Origin: Candidatus Micrarchaeota archaeon
GTDB lineage: Archaea; Micrarchaeota; Micrarchaeia; Anstonellales; J096
Length of the DNA stretch: 47,860 nucleotides
NCBI GenBank assembly: GCA_015523325.1
Contig: WAKO01000015.1
Span: forward strand, 75,812-123,671
Direction of reading: 5' to 3'
A program made the position numbers and the translations under genes. Positions 86 through 27,216 of this stretch are shown one piece after another. The notes beneath the pieces were generated by a model. That model saw only the letters and a program-made list of their open reading frames with translations, was not told the origin of the DNA and made no database searches. The stretch's first letter is position 1; each line of letters opens with the position of its first letter.

Positions 86-268
86 AGGTGTGGAGGGAAT
101 AGCCTCCCTTCTGTTTTGCGGCATTTATCTATACTCCTTTTCATTGCTTATCCTGCAGCCGTTTCACTACTTACGTTTCTGTTCTGCAGGAACTCCCTTA
201 AGGAGGTCTAAGCTCCAAGGGGGAGAACTTCCTCCCTCAAAAGAGGGTTAACCGCTCCCTCCACACCT
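86..268 (-). ncRNA. rnpB: RNase P RNA, highly reduced (~183 nt)
   Basis: GC-rich island. 13-bp terminal helix (86-98 with 256-268). Minus strand shows CR-I GAGGAAGUUCUCCC, CR-V ACAGAAGGGAGGCUA, CR-II AACAGAAAC and CR-III UGAAAC. TATA-like element about 25 nt upstream. Confidence 0.88.
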
Positions 269-3997: not shown

Positions 3998-5212
3998 ATG
4001 TACATAAGCGAGATAATGGCTTCTTATTCAGCATTAATAGGTTATGGAATGGGGATTGCATTATTTTTTGGAGTTGCTATTTATCTGATCTCTAAGATAT
4101 TAGAAAACCCAGAGCTACAAGCAAAAGGAAAAGAATACATAATGACAACCTTGGAGGGAGGAGGAATAATAGTTTTGCTTTTGTTAGTAGATTTTATAAT
4201 AAAGGAGGTAATGACAGTTTTGCTTTGTGAAAGTTGTTCTCCTTATTTAATGGCAAAACTAGCTTTAGAGAGAGTAATGGACCTGATAACTTCTGTTTAT
4301 TTTTCCCTTTATTTATTTGATGTTATAGTAGGGCCTTTTATACAAAGCTCATTAACAACTCCTACTCTAAAAATTGGCATATTCTCTGCCTCTATGGAGT
4401 TCCTTCCTCTTGCAGGATTGGATGTAATTATGGAGCTCTACTACATATTAACAAATTATACATTTGACATAACTCTAATAGCATTAGGTAGAATGGCTAT
4501 AGTTGAGTTGGCTCCAGCAATAGGGGTGTTCCTTCTTCCTCTTGGAATTATACTTAGATTTCTTCCATCAACAAAGAGGACAGGAGGGGCCATAATAGCG
4601 TTAGTTCTGTCCTTTATATATGTCTTCCCTCTTTCCATATTATTCTCAGATTATTTGATTTATGAGGTGGGTGGAGTTTATTCCCCTGGCATTGGAGACC
4701 CTACATTAGGGGATTTTGAAATAACTGGAAAAGACCTTAATTCTCTACCTACTACAAGGGAAAAGGGAGAAGAAATTTCTAAGATAACTCCTCCCAAAGA
4801 AGCAATCTCTCCTGAGCAGCTTGCTGAGAGTGCCTCTGGAAGGGCCCTAAAAGAGTTGGAAGGAGAGCTAATTGGAGTTCTATTAATTTCTGGTATTAAT
4901 GGAATAGGGGCGTTGATAAGTTGGGTTGGAGCTGGAGGGGCCTTTTCACCACAATTAAGAAGCCTTTATGTTACTGGAATTGTCATTCAAGTTATATCCT
5001 CTTCCTTATTAGTTAGCTTACTAAACCCATTCAAATGGAACCTAATAATCATATCAGCTCTTTTCATCTATATTTCTTTATTGGCAAAAGTATTGGTTAT
5101 AACTATAATAACATTCGTTTTAGAAATAATAATAACCATTACTTTCTTTAGAGCATTTTCCAGCTTTTTAGGAGGAGATTCATCACTGTTGGGATTAACA
5201 AGGCTTGTTTAG
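3998..5212 (+). CDS. Polytopic membrane protein, paralog 1 of 6 (CedA/VirB6-like)
   Basis: Multiple TM segments; LPLGIILRFLPSTKRTGGAIIALVLSFIYVFP motif; C-terminus FLGGDSSLLGLTRLV. Family call is inference. Confidence 0.6.
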   Translation: MYISEIMASYSALIGYGMGIALFFGVAIYLISKILENPELQAKGKEYIMTTLEGGGIIVLLLLVDFIIKEVMTVLLCESCSPYLMAKLALERVMDLITSVYFSLYLFDVIVGPFIQSSLTTPTLKIGIFSASMEFLPLAGLDVIMELYYILTNYTFDITLIALGRMAIVELAPAIGVFLLPLGIILRFLPSTKRTGGAIIALVLSFIYVFPLSILFSDYLIYEVGGVYSPGIGDPTLGDFEITGKDLNSLPTTREKGEEISKITPPKEAISPEQLAESASGRALKELEGELIGVLLISGINGIGALISWVGAGGAFSPQLRSLYVTGIVIQVISSSLLVSLLNPFKWNLIIISALFIYISLLAKVLVITIITFVLEIIITITFFRAFSSFLGGDSSLLGLTRLV

Positions 5213-13718: not shown

Positions 13719-14912
13719 ATGGAAAGTATAGAAAAGCTATTGGAAAAGCCATCAATATTTAAGGATAGGAGGGTACTATCCCCTCATTTTATTCCCTCTG
13801 AGCTTCCCTATAGAGAGGAGCACATAAAAAAAATTTTAAGAAACTTAGCAGTGGTTTTAAGAGGAGAAAAACCAAGAAACATCTTTATTTATGGAAAAAC
13901 AGGAACAGGAAAAACCTCAACAATAAAACACATAATAAGAAGGCTAGAAGAGTTTAAACAAACAAAAGGAATGGAGAACATAAAGATGTTTTATTTAAAC
14001 AGTAGGATGATGTATAATTCAAGGTACAGGATTTTAACAAAAGTTATGAAGAGCTATTACCCAGAACTGGAAAAGAGTGGGTTTGGTTTAACTTATGTTT
14101 ATGAGAAACTTGTTGAATTTTTAGAGGAAGGAAACCACTTGGTTTTAACAATAGATGAAATTGACGTTGTAAAGGATTTAGATGACTTGGTTTATACAAT
14201 AACTAGGGTTAATGACGAAGTAGAAAAAGGCTCATTAAGTGTTGTTGGGATAAGTAATAAGTTAAGCTTCAAACAAAACCTAGACCCTAGGAGTAGGAGC
14301 TCTTTATTTGAGGAAGAGCTAGTTTTCCCTCCCTACAATGCTTCACAACTAAAAAAGATTTTAATGCAAAGAGTTGAACAGGGATTTGTGAAAGGAGTGG
14401 TTAGTGAAGGGGCTATCTCTTTAATAGCTGCAATAACAGCTCAAGAAAATGGAGATGCTAGATATGCTTTAAAGCTCTTGCTAAAAGCTGGAGAGGAAGG
14501 GGAAGAAGAAGGAAGAGTAGAGGAGAAGCATGTTAAAAAGGCTATTGAAAGTGTAGAGCACGATTTGGCGGAAGAGGCAATAAAAACCCTTCCAATAAAT
14601 CAACAAATCCTCCTCTATTCCATAGCCAAAATGACTCTTGCAAATAAAAAGATGACAACATTAACAAATGATGGAAATTATTTCTTTTCCGGGGATGTTT
14701 ACAAATATTACACAAAGGTTTGTAAAGAACTTGAAAAAAAACCAAAAAGCTCAAGGTGGTATAGAGAATATATAAATGAGTTGGAAAACCTTGGATTAAT
14801 CTCTAGCATATTTACAGGAAAGGGGATAAGAGGACATACTAGACTAATAAAGCTAGGAATTTCTCCCGAAGGAGTGATAAAGAGCATAGAGAAAAGGTTG
14901 AAAAGAGAATAA
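13719..14912 (+). CDS. cdc6: Orc1/Cdc6 replication initiator
   Basis: LPYREE, GKTGTGKT, IDEID, LDPRSRSSL, FPPY and GDARYAL motifs; C-terminal winged helix. Confidence 0.95.
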   Translation: MESIEKLLEKPSIFKDRRVLSPHFIPSELPYREEHIKKILRNLAVVLRGEKPRNIFIYGKTGTGKTSTIKHIIRRLEEFKQTKGMENIKMFYLNSRMMYNSRYRILTKVMKSYYPELEKSGFGLTYVYEKLVEFLEEGNHLVLTIDEIDVVKDLDDLVYTITRVNDEVEKGSLSVVGISNKLSFKQNLDPRSRSSLFEEELVFPPYNASQLKKILMQRVEQGFVKGVVSEGAISLIAAITAQENGDARYALKLLLKAGEEGEEEGRVEEKHVKKAIESVEHDLAEEAIKTLPINQQILLYSIAKMTLANKKMTTLTNDGNYFFSGDVYKYYTKVCKELEKKPKSSRWYREYINELENLGLISSIFTGKGIRGHTRLIKLGISPEGVIKSIEKRLKRE

Positions 14913-14920
14913 GGGAAAAA

Positions 14921-15457
14921 ATGAGAAGGATAGTAATTGTAGGAATAGCACTCTTACTCTTATTTTTAGCAGGATGTATAAGAGATAGAAACTCTATAAT
15001 GCAGGAGGATTGTAATTCCTATAGTGGGATGCAAAGAGACAATTGCTTACTCTATAAATCTTACTTTATTGCCCTCCAAGGAGATAAAGAGGAGGCAATA
15101 AACAATTGTAAGGAAATACTTGGAGAAGATCCTGAAAGCACAATAGATGCAACTTCAAGCGCTATCTCATTAAAGGTCTACTTTAGATATCAAAAATACA
15201 AAAATTGTATTGAAAGAGTTGCCGTATTCTCAAAAGATGATAGAGTTTGTGAGTGGATTGATAAGCCTAAAATAAAGAACATATTCATTAATTTTCAAAC
15301 AGGAGTAAACCTAGCTCTTGACTTTATTGGAGGGTTAAGCCCAGGAGAGTTTATTCAAAATGAAGTTGAAAGGTGTAAGAAAAAAGTTTATTATGAGGCA
15401 AATCTCAAGAATTCCCTAGCTAAAAACATAGAGAGATATGTTATCTCTCCTTCTTAG
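14921..15457 (+). CDS. Cys-rich putative lipoprotein
   Basis: Basic N-terminus, hydrophobic core and LAGC lipobox; spaced Cys residues. Confidence 0.7.
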   Translation: MRRIVIVGIALLLLFLAGCIRDRNSIMQEDCNSYSGMQRDNCLLYKSYFIALQGDKEEAINNCKEILGEDPESTIDATSSAISLKVYFRYQKYKNCIERVAVFSKDDRVCEWIDKPKIKNIFINFQTGVNLALDFIGGLSPGEFIQNEVERCKKKVYYEANLKNSLAKNIERYVISPS

Positions 15458-15513
15458 ATCTCTCTTTTATGTTCTCCACATATTCATTAATTAAAATTAA
15501 ATAAAGCATTAAA

Positions 15514-15597
15514 TGCAGGGGGTGGGATTCGAACCCACGAACCCACTAAGGGACTGGCTCCTAAGGCCAGCGCCGTTGACCACTGGGCGACCCCTGC
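15514..15597 (-). tRNA. tRNA-Leu(TAG)
   Basis: GCAGGGG acceptor stem, CTGGC-CT TAG GA-GCCAG anticodon arm, long variable arm, GGTTCGAATCC T-arm. Confidence 0.97.
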
Positions 15598-15624
15598 CAA
15601 GAACCCTCTCTTGGAACCTTCCTT

Positions 15625-15857
15625 CACGGGGCCTTGCCCCCCGTGGACCCTCCTGAAAGGCCCTTAGGAGGTTCCCAAAGCTAAGGCTTTTCTAAGCCTT
15701 CTCCACGGGGCCTTGCCCCCCGTGGACCCTCCTGAAAGGCCCTTAGGAGGTTCCCAGAGCTAAGGCCCTCAGATGCTTTTTTGGGCCTTGCCCTCACGGG
15801 GCCGTGCCCCCCGTGAACCCTTCTGAAAGGTCTTTCTGAGGTTTCCAAGGCTTAGGG
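15625..15857. repeat. Three tandem GC-rich ~63-nt structured repeats (putative ncRNA modules)
   Basis: Copies start at 15625, 15704 and 15795. Copies 1 and 2 match at 62 of 63 nt; copy 3 is diverged. Each contains two hairpins. Confidence 0.9.
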
Positions 15858-15939
15858 AGTAATAATAGGATAGCTAAATAAAGATTAAAAATTTAAGCAT
15901 GACTAAACTATAAAAATTGAGAAGAGCAGAGGGATTAAT

Positions 15940-16422
15940 TTGAAGAGTGTTGAGAAAGAAAGTATAAAGAGATTATATATAAAAAGTCTAAAAGAGGAAT
16001 TAAGAGGGAAAGAGAAAGAAGAGCTGTTAAGGAGAAGAAGATCAATAAGAGTTGGATTATTAGGAGGTTTTTTTGATTTCCTTCACATAGGACATATAAA
16101 AGCTTTAAAAGAGGCTAAGGACAAGGTTGATGTTTTAGTTGTTGTTATTGCTAGGGAAAAGGAAGGGGAGTGGAAAAAACCTATACACACTATAAAGGAA
16201 AGGGTTGAGCTAGTAAGCTCAATAAAATATGTGGATATTGTTATAGAAGGAAGAGAAAACAAGCTTGAAACATTGAGAAAAGTAGATCCAGATGTAATTT
16301 TTTATGGGTATGATCAGGAAGAATTTATAAAAGAAGAAGGAGTGGAAATAGTTAGGCTTTCTCCCTATAAACCAGAAAAGATAAAGACAACAAAGATTAA
16401 GAAACACTATGGATTTTTCTAA
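15940..16422 (+). CDS. Cytidylyltransferase-family nucleotidyltransferase, probable FAD synthase (RibL-like)
   Basis: GGFFDFLHIGH (HxGH), ERVELVSSIKYVD and PDVIFYGYDQ. Confidence 0.8.
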   Translation: MKSVEKESIKRLYIKSLKEELRGKEKEELLRRRRSIRVGLLGGFFDFLHIGHIKALKEAKDKVDVLVVVIAREKEGEWKKPIHTIKERVELVSSIKYVDIVIEGRENKLETLRKVDPDVIFYGYDQEEFIKEEGVEIVRLSPYKPEKIKTTKIKKHYGFF

Positions 16423-16487: not shown

Positions 16488-17843
16488 ATGGGTGTTATTG
16501 GATTCTTAATTGCTCTCTCATTAGCTTTTCTCTCCTATTTTATAGCAAAAAGCATAAAGCTTCCTGAATTAGCAATTCTCCTCATAATAGCTTCTTTAGT
16601 AGGACCAAATGGTTTTGAATTGGTTACGATGGAAGAGGTGGAGATATTCTCTTCAATAGGAGTTATGTTTCTACTCTACATGATAGGGCTTGAGTTTAAA
16701 ACAGAGAACCTCCTTTTTTATGGGAAAAGAGGACTGTTATTTGCAGTTTTGAAGATGACGTTAGTTGCTATTCCTATAAGCATAATGGCTTATTTTTTGT
16801 TTAACTTCTCTGTTTTTCAAGCCCTTTTGTTGGGAGCAGGTTTATCAATAACAAGCACAGCAATATTTTCTCAAGTTGCAAAAAGTTTTGGAGTTCATAA
16901 AAGACCAGAAGCAAAACAATTATTTGCAGAACTAGTTTGGGAAGATATATTTGCTATTTTTCTCTTGCTCCTTGTTTCATCTTATGGAAAAGAAAGCAGC
17001 ATTTTTGTGAACATAATAGTTGGGTTGTTGTATTTTGCAATTCCTTACTTCATAGTAAGAGAAATCTCTAGCGTTTTAGTGAAAAAATTGCCAAATGATG
17101 AGGAGGTTTATTTCCTATTTTCAATGGCAATAGCCGGAGTGTTGGTTTTGGTTGGTGAGTTGCTTAACGTTTCAGAGGAGTTGGCTGCTTTTTTGGCTGG
17201 AAGTATAGTGGCTAATTTTAAGGAGATTGAGAGGATAAAACAACACCTAAAAATACTTAGCTCAACATTTATAATATTCTTCTTTTTCTCCCTAGGAATG
17301 CAAGGAAACTTACTAGTGCTATTAAATCCTTTGCTAATTGGGTTTATCTTATTTGTGCTACTAGTGAATGCTATATTTAAGACTTTTTCAACCTCATTCA
17401 TAACCCTTCTCTTCAGAGGTACTCCAAAGCAAGCTGCAATGTCTGGTTTGTTAATGATGTCAATAGGAGAGTTTTCCTTGTTGCTGGCTGATAAAGGAAG
17501 GGAATTTTTTGAAGGTTTTGATGTGTTTAGTTTTGTTTCAGGTTTGGTTTTAGTTAGTTCAGTTCTTGCATGGTATTTTCCAAAGCTTTATCCAGCTTAT
17601 GCAAGCTATTTAATAAGAGTGGTTAACCACTCCTCATCCTTGTTCAATGTTCTAAGAAAGAAGTTAGTTATACTTAAAGAAGATAAAAAAATATTTTATG
17701 CGATCCTCTTTATCCTAGCATTTCCACTTTCTAGCTTAATATTAAATAGTGCTCTTCCTTTACCACTCTTGTTGCTTGCAACTATTTCCTTAATATTTAT
17801 TGCCACATTAAGAGGTAAAAAAAGAAAAAATAAAAGCAATTAA
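16488..17843 (+). CDS. Cation:proton antiporter, CPA2 (KefB-like)
   Basis: GVMFLLYMIGLEF, SITSTAI, ED and GEFS motifs; about 13 TM segments. Confidence 0.88.
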   Translation: MGVIGFLIALSLAFLSYFIAKSIKLPELAILLIIASLVGPNGFELVTMEEVEIFSSIGVMFLLYMIGLEFKTENLLFYGKRGLLFAVLKMTLVAIPISIMAYFLFNFSVFQALLLGAGLSITSTAIFSQVAKSFGVHKRPEAKQLFAELVWEDIFAIFLLLLVSSYGKESSIFVNIIVGLLYFAIPYFIVREISSVLVKKLPNDEEVYFLFSMAIAGVLVLVGELLNVSEELAAFLAGSIVANFKEIERIKQHLKILSSTFIIFFFFSLGMQGNLLVLLNPLLIGFILFVLLVNAIFKTFSTSFITLLFRGTPKQAAMSGLLMMSIGEFSLLLADKGREFFEGFDVFSFVSGLVLVSSVLAWYFPKLYPAYASYLIRVVNHSSSLFNVLRKKLVILKEDKKIFYAILFILAFPLSSLILNSALPLPLLLLATISLIFIATLRGKKRKNKSN

Positions 17844-19255
17844 CCCTTAACAACTCCTACTGGTTTTAACTTTGCCACAACATCACTTATTCCTGCTAAT
17901 TCAACACTCCTAACAACAACATCAACATCTTTATAAGCTTGAGGAGCCTCCTCAGTAACTCCTCTCAAAGTTTTGCTTCTTACATAAATACCCTTATCCA
18001 AGAGCTGTTTTAAGAGGCTCTCAGCCCTCCAAGTTTCTCTTGCCTTTCTCCTACTCATCCTCCTTCCTGCTCCATGGCAAGAGCTTCCAAAGCTTATCTC
18101 AAGTCCTTTTTCTTTTCCAACTAAAACATAGCTTGAGGTTCCCATACTACCAGGAATTAGGACAGGTTGACCAAGCTCTTTAAAGATATTTGGCAAGTCC
18201 TTGTGGTTTGGAGGAAAGGCTCTGGTTGCTCCTTTTCTGTGTATAATTAAGTCAAATTCTTCTCCCTCAAAAACATGTTTTTCAAATTTTGCTATGTTGT
18301 GGGCTACATCATAAAGGAGAGGCATTTCTTCCTTTGAGATTGAATAGAGCTTATCAAAAACCTCTCTCACAAAATAGGTTATTATTTGTCTATTTGTGAA
18401 TGCAAAATTTATGGCAGAGTTCATAGCACTCAAATAAGATTGGGCCTCCTCCCTATAAAGAGGGAGATAAACTAACTCCAAATCAGGAAGGAAAAGATTA
18501 AGCCTCTTTGCTATTGGAAGGAACTCTCTTATATAATCACTAGCTATTTGGTGCCCATAACCTCTAGAACCACAATGGATCATAATTACTATCTGCCCTT
18601 TTTGTAATCCAAACTCATTTGCTATTGGAGAAAAAACCTTCTCAACAACTTGAACTTCTAAAAAGTGATTTCCAGAGCCCAAAGTTCCTAATTGAAATCT
18701 TCCTCTTTCCTTAGCTTTCTTTGATACTTTGGAGGGATCTCCTTTAACTCTTCCATACTCCTCAATCCTTTCCTTATCTTCTTTTAAAGCAAATCCATTC
18801 TCAATAGCCCAATCAATTCCTTTTTCTCCAACCTCATCAAGCTCTTCTTTTGAAAGCCTTATTCCACTTTCACTTCCAACACCAGAAGGAACAGATTTGT
18901 AGAGAGCATCAACCAACTCCTTTAAATTAATCTCACTAGCAAATAGAGGGGTTTTTATTAACCTAACTCCACAATTTATATCATATCCAACCCCTCCTGG
19001 AGAAACAATTCCATTCTCTTTTTCAAACGCAGCAACCCCTCCTATAGGAAATCCATAACCTTCATGAGCATCAGGCATTAAAACAGAATTCCTAAATATT
19101 CCAGGCAAGGAAGAAACATTTCTTAATTGGGAAAGGGTCTTATCTTTTTTTAAAGACCTTATTACTTCCTCAACACCAACAATTAAAGCATCAACTTTCA
19201 TTGGAGGTTCTTTTTTCATCCTCCAAATAGCTTTCCCTAGCTTTTCAAATTCCAT
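17840..19255 (-). CDS. rtcB: tRNA-splicing ligase RtcB
   Basis: MPDAHEGYGFPIG, GYDINCG, GSGNHFLE, HRKGAT and HGAGR motifs. Confidence 0.98.
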   Translation of the reverse strand: MEFEKLGKAIWRMKKEPPMKVDALIVGVEEVIRSLKKDKTLSQLRNVSSLPGIFRNSVLMPDAHEGYGFPIGGVAAFEKENGIVSPGGVGYDINCGVRLIKTPLFASEINLKELVDALYKSVPSGVGSESGIRLSKEELDEVGEKGIDWAIENGFALKEDKERIEEYGRVKGDPSKVSKKAKERGRFQLGTLGSGNHFLEVQVVEKVFSPIANEFGLQKGQIVIMIHCGSRGYGHQIASDYIREFLPIAKRLNLFLPDLELVYLPLYREEAQSYLSAMNSAINFAFTNRQIITYFVREVFDKLYSISKEEMPLLYDVAHNIAKFEKHVFEGEEFDLIIHRKGATRAFPPNHKDLPNIFKELGQPVLIPGSMGTSSYVLVGKEKGLEISFGSSCHGAGRRMSRRKARETWRAESLLKQLLDKGIYVRSKTLRGVTEEAPQAYKDVDVVVRSVELAGISDVVAKLKPVGVVKG

Positions 19256-26929: not shown

Positions 26930-27216
26930 GGCAAAAGGGGCAAGTGCCAACCCAGGTTCAGTAGGCGCAAGAAAGGAACCAGTGCATAGGGGATCCACAC
27001 TCTTAACCCTAAAGCATGAGCCTATGCACTTAGGGCTGCTCTTTTCAGCCTGACCCGGTTCATGCATAGGCCCATCTAAAGGGGGAGTGCTTCAATTCCC
27101 TATGCAAAGGCCTTCTTCCTTGCCCTCCTACTTATCCTGGGTGTTCGGCCCACCATCTAGGGGATTTGTGGAAAGGGGACCCCTAGCCCCCAACCTAGGC
27201 ACTTGCTTTCCCTGCC
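26930..27216 (-). ncRNA. ffs: Signal recognition particle RNA (long form)
   Basis: Minus strand has the helix-8 SRP54 motif GAACCGGGUCAGGCUGAAAAGAGCAGCCC, terminal helix GCAAGUGCC/GGCACUUGC and long paired arms. Ends approximate. Confidence 0.9.

Follow-up and report, generated by a model that had tools for sequence, protein, structure and literature searches.

What are the three GC-rich hairpin units that directly precede a tRNA-Leu gene in this Candidatus Micrarchaeota archaeon: a new class of structured RNA, a removable leader of the tRNA, or a repeat? The locus lies in a 47,860-nt stretch of DNA that was analysed as a whole and is called the window below. The original prediction described three tandem units immediately upstream of the tRNA, and a repeat search of the window recovered them between 15598 and 15870 as a directly repeated 79-nt unit, whose copies occupy 15608-15686, 15687-15765 and 15778-15856, with 100, 90 and 78% identity to the first of these copies (15608-15686) and with the predicted start spacings of 79 and 91 nt. 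The GC-rich island that had been noted is equally clear, with a GC fraction of 0.58-0.60 across 15500-15800 compared with 0.30-0.40 in both flanks. Both ARAGORN and Rfam (tRNA, 57.8 bits) place tRNA-Leu(TAG) on the minus strand at 15514..15597, so that the array lies directly 5' of the gene and abuts its 5' end. A gene on the plus strand converges on this tRNA.

Read on the minus strand, as are all the features given here, the array begins with unit 1 (15778..15856, formerly copy 3), which is distal to the tRNA, proximal to the promoter and the most diverged of the three (78% identical); it scores 84.3 bits with R1, a covariance model built from 19 units. A hairpin scan located its hairpin A, a 9-bp stem with the loop GGCACGG, at 15793..15817. 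A type-2 linker (15766..15792), recognized from the sequence and from run counts, carries six consecutive A on the tRNA strand; the matching T6 run of the plus strand (15777-15782) is terminator-like for that strand only. Unit 2, in the middle (15687..15765, 90% identical to unit 3, 88.6 bits), has a hairpin A with a 9-bp stem and the loop GGCAAGG at 15702..15726. Unit 3 (15608..15686, formerly copy 1) is next to the tRNA and is the reference copy, made of a linker, a B segment and a hairpin A; it reaches 108.3 bits, and its hairpin A (15625..15645) combines a 7-bp stem with the 7-nt loop GGCAAGG, read on the tRNA strand. On contig C15 of the assembly the three hairpins A, from unit 1 to unit 3, stand at 91604-91628, 91513-91537 and 91436-91456. 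The junction segment next to tRNA +1 (15598..15615), defined by reading the sequence, may form a 6-bp hairpin whose last G would be G1 of the tRNA, and the same junction precedes all four tRNA-Leu genes of the genome (4/4). As had been anticipated, there is no TATA box beside the tRNA, and TATA-like tracts are found further upstream on the minus strand, at 15874-15883 and 15886-15897. These two boxes, about 20-40 nt upstream of the first unit, are the predicted promoter of array and tRNA according to their sequence and to a comparison of upstream regions.

Public contigs from four DNA runs of one study, labelled hydrothermal vent metagenome, match 15200-15543 and 15792-16200 without differences. 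The middle of the array is represented only by short contig pieces, from a second run, that cover the unit junctions, and no public contig spans the whole array. The public contigs break inside the repeats, where the depth is 300-1250 compared with 47 in the flanks, a difference that fits many copies per genome. The repeats are real; the exact count of three units here is that of the assembly.

To survey the rest of the genome we used an assembly of 701 kb in 24 contigs (34% GC, 86.6% complete). BLAST with the array detected about a dozen further sites, and model R1 found 26 units in 13 arrays on seven contigs, with no match outside the arrays and with distinct unit variants among them. All 26 units are on the same strand as the neighbouring tRNA. 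Out of the 33 tRNA genes called by Infernal above the cut-off, 11 carry an array directly upstream, ending 0-27 nt before the tRNA 5' end. These are Gly(CCC), Gly(TCC) and Gly(GCC); Leu(GAG), Leu(TAG), Leu(TAA) and the intron-containing Leu(CAA), which ARAGORN missed; Arg(CCT), Arg(TCT) and the intron-containing Arg(TCG); and Ala(TGC). The arrays thus cover 3/3 tRNA-Gly genes, all four tRNA-Leu genes found, 3/4 tRNA-Arg genes and one tRNA-Ala gene, and the tRNAs that bear them are intact. Two of the 11 arrays fill the entire spacer behind a tRNA-Lys. The remaining two of the 13 follow array-bearing tRNA-Arg genes, one of them fused to a 20-nt tRNA 3' fragment, and look like decayed duplicates. 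Together the arrays amount to 2005 nt, 1144 of which are G or C (about 57%, against 34% for the genome); most GC islands of this genome are RNA genes. The suggestion that the units form a local new ncRNA class or a tandem switch does not agree with this dispersed family of 26 units, nor with the spread of its core hairpin through other archaea that is described below.

On the tRNA strand each unit consists of a linker, a B segment and a terminal hairpin. The linker is able to fold into a small hairpin of its own (stem AAGGCTT/AAGCCTT) or else to close the unit, the B segment contains the invariant core GGGAACCT ... CCTTTC-N-GGAGGGT, and the terminal hairpin bears a 7-nt loop, GGC-NN-GG. The hairpin scan found 22 hairpins with 7-9-bp stems in the genome, all of them within the 13 arrays and all in tRNA orientation. 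Their stems fall into three classes, CACGGGG (11 copies), ATAAGGGG (7 copies) and CCAGGAG (4 copies), and with one common loop on all three the hairpin has been kept through changes of its stem. Which module comes last before the tRNA depends on the tRNA family, and the hairpin reaches to 1 nt from +1 in the Gly genes and in Arg(CCT) and Arg(TCG). Units are often truncated, and hybrid hairpins and partial duplications are frequent as well.

Each copy in the window had been assigned two hairpins, A and B. Hairpin A is present in all three copies, and hairpin B pairs well only in copies 1 and 2. Two finer observations were reproduced: the base pair under hairpin A varies (T.G, C-G and T-A, read on the plus strand), and the G-C to A-T double change in hairpin B of copy 3 falls on pair 28-58, which is AU in 2 of the 19 aligned units. 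Over these 19 units the terminal hairpin shows 91% pairing, and two of its pairs are changed on both sides. Helix B reaches 76% pairing; its upper three pairs are unpaired in 5-8 of the 19 units and it contains an invariant A.G mismatch. Because the changes represent few events among paralogues, we regard the support for structure, with which the original prediction had found such changes consistent, as moderate for the terminal hairpin and weak for helix B. The whole window array folds better than 200 out of 200 shuffled sequences on both strands (z -4.6 and -4.7), and single units do not stand out from their shuffles (z -0.3 to -2.2).

The absence of a known family, also part of the original prediction, was confirmed. 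With Rfam 15 only tRNA and archaeal SRP RNA reach their gathering scores in the window, and at E<=10 the best match other than tRNA within 15400-16000 has 23.2 bits against a gathering score of 100, with no Hgc family among the matches. Several identities were considered and set aside. A CRISPR array is not indicated, the segments between the hairpins being themselves conserved between units and loci. C/D box sRNAs have a C box (RUGAUGA) and a D box (CUGA) about 50-70 nt apart; here GTGATGA occurs in only three linkers and CTGA in other linkers, and the two do not come as a pair within a unit. The boxes or GA pairs of H/ACA RNAs and K-turns are absent or inconsistent, as judged by eye. Replication-origin (ORB) repeats would suit the orc1/cdc6 gene at 13719-14912; the same units make up 13 arrays, all of them beside tRNAs. 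The open reading frames that overlap the array are short (e.g. 55 amino acids, 15681-15848) and made of repeat sequence. In front of the Gly and Arg tRNAs the motif TTGATAAG of the proximal hairpin occupies -27 to -20 and might pass for a weak TATA box, and the Leu and Ala junctions contain nothing similar. The B segment is complementary to the variable arm of tRNA-Leu at 14 of 17 nt, which by a rough estimate may be chance and which is inapplicable to the Gly, Arg and Ala tRNAs. A strict bulge-helix-bulge scan, relevant to a split-tRNA or BHB-processed leader, had little power: its counts were near those of shuffled sequences in most regions (e.g. 4 vs 3.45) and it missed both intron-containing control tRNAs.

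The strand on which the arrays are likely to be read was assessed from their surroundings. The last 40 nt upstream of the 11 array-bearing tRNAs have 48-68% GC and contain no TATA-like box. The other tRNAs examined have AT-rich upstream regions, most with a TTTAAA-type box roughly 25-45 nt before +1 (none was scored upstream of tRNA-Ser(cga), which has no array). Most arrays have a TATA-like box 20-45 nt before their first unit; those without a scored box at this distance are the arrays behind another tRNA and that of tRNA-Gly(TCC). Archaeal transcription terminates at runs of T. In the 2005 nt that the arrays make up, only one run of T>=4 (a T5) is found on the tRNA strand versus 18 on the opposite strand, 10 of which are T>=5, and in the proposed helices the tRNA strand has 26 G.U cells versus 5 A.C cells. 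Between an array and its tRNA we found no T-run or promoter-like box in any case. The arrays hence lie between predicted promoter boxes and tRNA +1, on the tRNA strand and with no terminator in between. The array-bearing tRNAs include every Gly and Leu gene found and so must be expressed, most simply from a transcript whose start lies immediately upstream of the array and which continues into the tRNA.

For the removal of such leaders the window itself encodes a short RNase P RNA at 88..266 on the minus strand (RF00373, 75.2 bits, E 1.4e-21), which at 179 nt remains under the Rfam gathering score of 84. A homologue of Rpp29 is encoded elsewhere in the genome, and Pop5 gave no match in the 86.6%-complete assembly. 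Because the units keep to the tRNA strand, have no TATA-like box of their own and avoid T-runs on that strand, and because RNase P RNA and Rpp29 are present, the arrays are probably long pre-tRNA leaders or spacers. The leader of about 260 nt, on the tRNA strand and removable by RNase P, that had been proposed for the window is accordingly, on the evidence of 11 tRNAs, the upstream box, the T-runs and the RNase P components, the most likely state of this locus.

To see how widespread the arrays are we turned to relatives of this archaeon. BLAST with the array gave no match in 40 relatives, the covariance model none in 60 and the hairpin pattern none in 400 other genomes sampled from the phylum. 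In genomes of the same family, 27 tRNA-Leu and 13 tRNA-Ala(TGC) genes have ordinary AT-rich upstream regions, and one of these 13 tRNA-Ala genes is 100% identical to that of the array-bearing genome. By this comparison of sequences the arrays are a derived, lineage-specific state. The four flanking proteins had no matches at the tRNA-Leu loci of the relatives, and no empty site could be aligned to the array-bearing genome.

The hairpin itself was found much further afield. Its core element, GGAGGGTTG-R-TAAGGGG followed by a 7-nt loop and CCCCTTA-Y, was searched for as the pattern GGGTTG-R-TAAGG-N-GGG-NNN-GGCCCCTTA-Y, which has seven sites in the Micrarchaeota genome. In an unrelated archaeal lineage the pattern occurs in 9 of 41 genomes, namely a metagenome-assembled genome (L044/G041) and eight of the 40 relatives sampled for it; the carriers, with genomes of 1.5-3.2 Mb, have 1-6 copies each. 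It was also found, exactly, on 55 metagenome contigs of 36-56% GC. Reversed-pattern controls gave 0 matches, and neither hairpin pattern matched a viral contig. A scan of genome contigs returned 29 stretches, mostly single chance matches in GC-rich genomes, and only L044 was clearly related.

After removal of near-identical flanks, 64 external contexts were left for comparison. The hairpin is nearly invariant in them: one sequence accounts for 32 of the 64, and the closing pair is A-T in 44, G-C in 16 and another pair in 4. Some contexts hold 2-4 copies in tandem, repeated about every 40 nt; others hold half copies, or copies inside CRISPR arrays (contigs L149 and L152). In 11 of the 64 a second small hairpin with a TAGAAAA-type loop lies within 90 nt upstream, and it appears to resemble the linker hairpin of the Micrarchaeota units. 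In 27 of the 64 the hairpin lies no more than 3 nt from the end of an ORF on the opposite strand, whose TAA is part of the hairpin foot. One orthologous gene end could be compared in 15 genomes of the unrelated lineage: the element is intact in four (1-4 copies), partial or diverged in three and absent from eight, and the last codons of the gene change with the state of the element; owing to the divergence of the flanks, neither the ends of the element nor target duplications could be defined. Rfam searches of seven external hairpin loci matched only a tRNA. In the unrelated lineage the hairpin is usually the reverse complement relative to the adjacent gene. The rules of orientation between hairpin and gene differ between the lineages. 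On L127, a short AT-rich archaeal contig, a tRNA-Arg is followed, past its 3' end, by a 210-nt hairpin array of opposite orientation; the ribosomal protein S3Ae and NAC of this contig are only 40-44% identical to those of the Micrarchaeota genome.

The family can be placed next to several known systems. Like the REP and BIME sequences of bacteria, the repeats are short GC-rich imperfect palindromes in many non-coding copies (22 hairpins and 26 units in the genome, 64 external contexts), clustered with other short motifs and variable in copy number. Bacterial REP/BIME elements often stand just after stop codons and are co-transcribed with their neighbours, and the external archaeal hairpin likewise follows stops. 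Unlike those elements the Micrarchaeota arrays belong to an archaeal host, are confined to the 5' leaders and spacers of tRNAs in this genome, have one orientation only (26/26 units, where BIMEs alternate) and come without a detected RAYT or Y1 transposase. The REP tag motif is GTAG/CGTC, and no tag of this type is seen in our alignments. Y1 transposase or TnpB is present in the unrelated genome G041 (five matches to PF01797), and both gave no match in the 86.6%-complete Micrarchaeota genome or in G428 and G411, which carry the hairpin. A match to MITE or IS ends, which the original prediction had listed as an argument against itself, comes close to what we observe: the core hairpin resembles REPs and MITEs in its position at gene ends, its variable copy number and its presence or absence at a single site.

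Leaders of archaeal pre-tRNAs are normally short. Like ordinary leaders, the arrays stand between a promoter and tRNA +1 in a genome with RNase P RNA and Rpp29; the other tRNA genes of this genome and its relatives mostly have boxes about 25-45 nt before +1 and hence short leaders, whereas the array leaders would be 90-270 nt long, GC-rich, repeated and common to unrelated tRNAs. Nanoarchaeum equitans has split tRNA halves with GC-rich complementary leaders, and leaderless tRNAs without RNase P. It too is a tiny AT-rich thermophilic archaeon with GC-rich sequence beside tRNA genes; it differs from the Micrarchaeota genome, whose tRNAs are whole, which encodes an RNase P RNA and in which the leaders consist of tandem repeats instead of complements of half genes. 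Klein and colleagues are said to have described, in 2002, high-GC islands of ncRNA (Hgc RNAs) in AT-rich hyperthermophiles. There as here GC-rich islands in AT-rich genomes mark structured RNAs, and the arrays differ in having no match to an Hgc family of Rfam. The retrotransposons Ty3 and Dictyostelium TRE are guided by Pol III factors to the upstream side of tRNA genes. As with these, the repeats gather just upstream of tRNA genes, where insertion is harmless, with the difference that no mobilising enzyme or target duplication is known for the Micrarchaeota arrays. A 2025 survey (PMC12306157) treats REP-like palindromes in archaea in general terms and, in the portion available, mentions no link to tRNA leaders. 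The literature, as far as it was accessible, contains no description of repeats in archaeal tRNA leaders or of the core hairpin.

The explanation that we favour, with a rough probability of 0.55, is that a REP/MITE-like family of hairpin repeats colonised tRNA leaders that RNase P can remove. The units of the window would belong, as a single array, to a family of GC-rich hairpins that is specific to this lineage, has been amplified in tandem and sits only between promoter and mature 5' end, or in the spacer between two tRNAs, at 11 of the 33 tRNAs. Array and tRNA would be transcribed together from a TATA-like box upstream of the first unit to give a pre-tRNA with a hairpin-rich leader of 90-270 nt; RNase P, acting in trans, would remove this leader by a cut at tRNA +1, and tRNase Z would presumably act at the 3' end of any tRNA further upstream. 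The modules may descend from the REP/MITE-like hairpin element of other archaeal lineages and may have spread within this one by recombination and tandem duplication, only into tRNA leaders and spacers. In a streamlined genome of 0.7-0.8 Mb, with hardly any DNA to spare between its genes, a removable tRNA leader could be one of the few harmless sites for repeats, and selection would keep only the orientation free of T-run terminators, the one that allows the tRNA to be made. While the anatomy, distribution and orientation of the arrays and their relatedness to the external element are observed directly, we infer the transcription, the release by RNase P, the logic of a safe haven and the horizontal origin. 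That unrelated archaea have the hairpin while 400 relatives from the phylum lack it suggests that it was acquired horizontally. Its mobility is deduced from this distribution only, as no terminal inverted repeats or target duplications have been defined. We see in the arrays a repeat family in an uncommon setting and no proof of a new RNA class, and what would be new here is the occurrence of REP-like repeats in an unusual niche protected by processing, the leaders of archaeal tRNAs.

A purely neutral history fits less well with the G.U bias, the few tRNA families concerned and the retained GC and hairpins; a neutral element should decay towards 34% GC, so the arrays, which keep about 57% GC and their hairpins, hint at selection on structure. 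The exclusive tie to the 5' sides of tRNAs and to particular families would also fit a tRNA-specific function. We therefore hold as possible, although rather doubtful, that the arrays are functional structured leaders in which the unit serves as an RNA module with affinity for a protein or for the processing machinery. Such leaders might shield the 5' end of the pre-tRNA or coordinate the maturation or level of one set of tRNAs, those for Leu, Gly, Arg and Ala; it is even conceivable that the units form tRNA-like three-way junctions and are set free as small RNAs. A GC content as high as that of the structural RNA genes of an AT-rich genome, a 7-nt loop conserved on three different stems, the excess of G.U over A.C on the tRNA strand (26 vs 5 cells), the strict tie to tRNA 5' ends and to whole isoacceptor families, and the flanking 7-nt complements that can close each unit into a three-way junction all speak for a function of this kind. 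The model finds the unit in 0 of 60 relatives, whose tRNA genes have ordinary promoters, and the arrays are sloppy, with truncated units, partial duplications and, on C16, hybrid hairpins with broken stems. The upper part of helix B is open in 5-8 of the 19 units and most paired columns never vary, single units fold no better than shuffled sequence, and the core hairpin is found elsewhere without any tRNA; these points all count against functional leaders.

A more specific version, which we think improbable, would make the arrays an RNA device peculiar to this lineage: hairpins acquired horizontally, perhaps from a host archaeon with the same hairpin at its gene ends, would have been domesticated as long leaders that set the maturation or abundance of one block of tRNAs. 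The GGC-NN-GG loops or the three-way junctions would then recruit a protein or RNase P for all Leu and Gly, most Arg and one Ala tRNA.

We judge it unlikely to a still greater degree that the arrays act through the opposite strand or as DNA, either as terminator or insulator blocks of T-runs plus hairpins, which would keep antisense transcription of tRNA genes from passing into neighbouring genes, or as sites for a DNA-binding protein. The 10 runs of T>=5 on the opposite strand over 2005 nt are in keeping with terminators, as is the hairpin of the other lineage, which stands as the reverse complement right after stop codons in 27 of 64 contexts. Within the Micrarchaeota genome the ORF at C16:35539-37338 ends with its TAA inside a terminal hairpin, and a plus-strand gene of the window converges on the tRNA. 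Such a converging gene is seen at only 3 of the 10 array blocks, however, the tRNA orientation is kept by 26 of 26 units, and an antisense transcript would meet the tRNA before it met the array; the compensatory changes in the stems favour a folded single strand over a duplex binding site. Least probable by far is that each array is an ncRNA gene in its own right, on one strand or the other, that just happens to stand beside a tRNA, as the L127 array, which could be its own transcript, might suggest, or that the tandem structure is an assembly artefact, as the want of a public contig across the whole window array might, since same-strand transcripts with no T-run or promoter-like box before the tRNA must enter it, plus-strand genes would be interrupted by internal T6 runs, and an artefact is at odds with 13 arrays of distinct unit variants on seven contigs, with both flanks anchored, with unit junctions covered by short contigs and with a depth of 300-1250 against 47.

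In all, one tRNA gene in three of this very small genome is preceded by 90-270 nt of repeated GC-rich hairpins. This raises the question of how RNase P, with its unusually short RNA, handles stable hairpins that end 1-2 nt from the cleavage site, and of why a streamlined genome keeps about 2 kb of repeats. The hairpin element has stayed nearly identical across an unrelated archaeal lineage and many metagenomes, where it often supplies the stop codon of the adjacent gene. If the leaders are functional, they would represent a new way of controlling the supply of tRNA. If they are not, they would be a clean case of repeats persisting in a safe haven protected by processing, and might also serve to trace gene flow between a symbiont and other archaea.

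Infernal placed 33 tRNA genes in the source genome assembly, against 29 by ARAGORN. Four genes are longer than usual (contig C3, 5768-5863 and 59052-59152; C16, 37524-37605; C22, 21395-21515). From a reading of their sequences, those at C3:5768-5863 and C16:37524-37605 appear to contain introns, and these same two were missed or mis-called by ARAGORN. With regard to the components of RNase P, a candidate for its RNA lies on the minus strand of the window at 88-266, scoring 75.2 bits (E 1.4e-21) with the archaeal model, whose gathering score of 84 it does not reach, and matching the type-T model weakly (24.4 bits). The candidate is very short (179 nt), yet covers all 288 positions of the archaeal model. 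Rpp29 is present in the genome, and no Pop5 was found in this 86.6% complete assembly. The window also encodes a short archaeal SRP RNA (26940-27206, minus strand, 267 nt, 100.3 bits) and two proteins named from sequence motifs, which we take to be an Orc1/Cdc6-like AAA+ protein (13719-14912, plus strand) and an RtcB-like RNA ligase (17840-19255, minus strand).

Hairpins of this kind also occur in other settings. In one of the two orphan arrays, which follow array-bearing tRNA-Arg genes, the terminal hairpin has in its foot the TAA stop codon of a 599-aa ORF (C16:35539-37338, plus strand), and the same arrangement recurs in 27 of the 64 contexts in which the hairpin element was found in other archaea. 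Two metagenome contigs carry the element inside CRISPR arrays (L149, about 600-700; L152, about 4500-4600), where it is placed between spacer and repeat with a degenerate repeat adjoining. A further archaeal contig, the AT-rich L127, has related hairpins arrayed over 210 GC-rich nucleotides (120-330). This array follows the 3' end of a tRNA-Arg(UCG) that contains an intron, and its orientation is opposite to that of the arrays of the source genome.

Outside the window, a 20-nt tRNA 3' fragment running from T-loop to acceptor end (C15:74327-74346) is joined directly onto the last hairpin of the other orphan array and matches without differences the terminal stretch of tRNA-Arg(TCT) next to it. 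Within the window, the variable-arm region of tRNA-Leu (15539-15555) is complementary at 14 of 17 nucleotides to the B segments of unit 3 (15658-15674) and unit 2 (15737-15753), which may be due to chance or may be a trace of the unit's origin. Also outside the window, the 3' part of tRNA-Ala(TGC), whose complete gene lies at C22:17684-17756, is present a second time 1.8 kb further downstream as a 54-nt, 100% identical copy (C22:19523-19576). This partial copy corresponds to the pattern that an element would leave on integrating into a tRNA gene.
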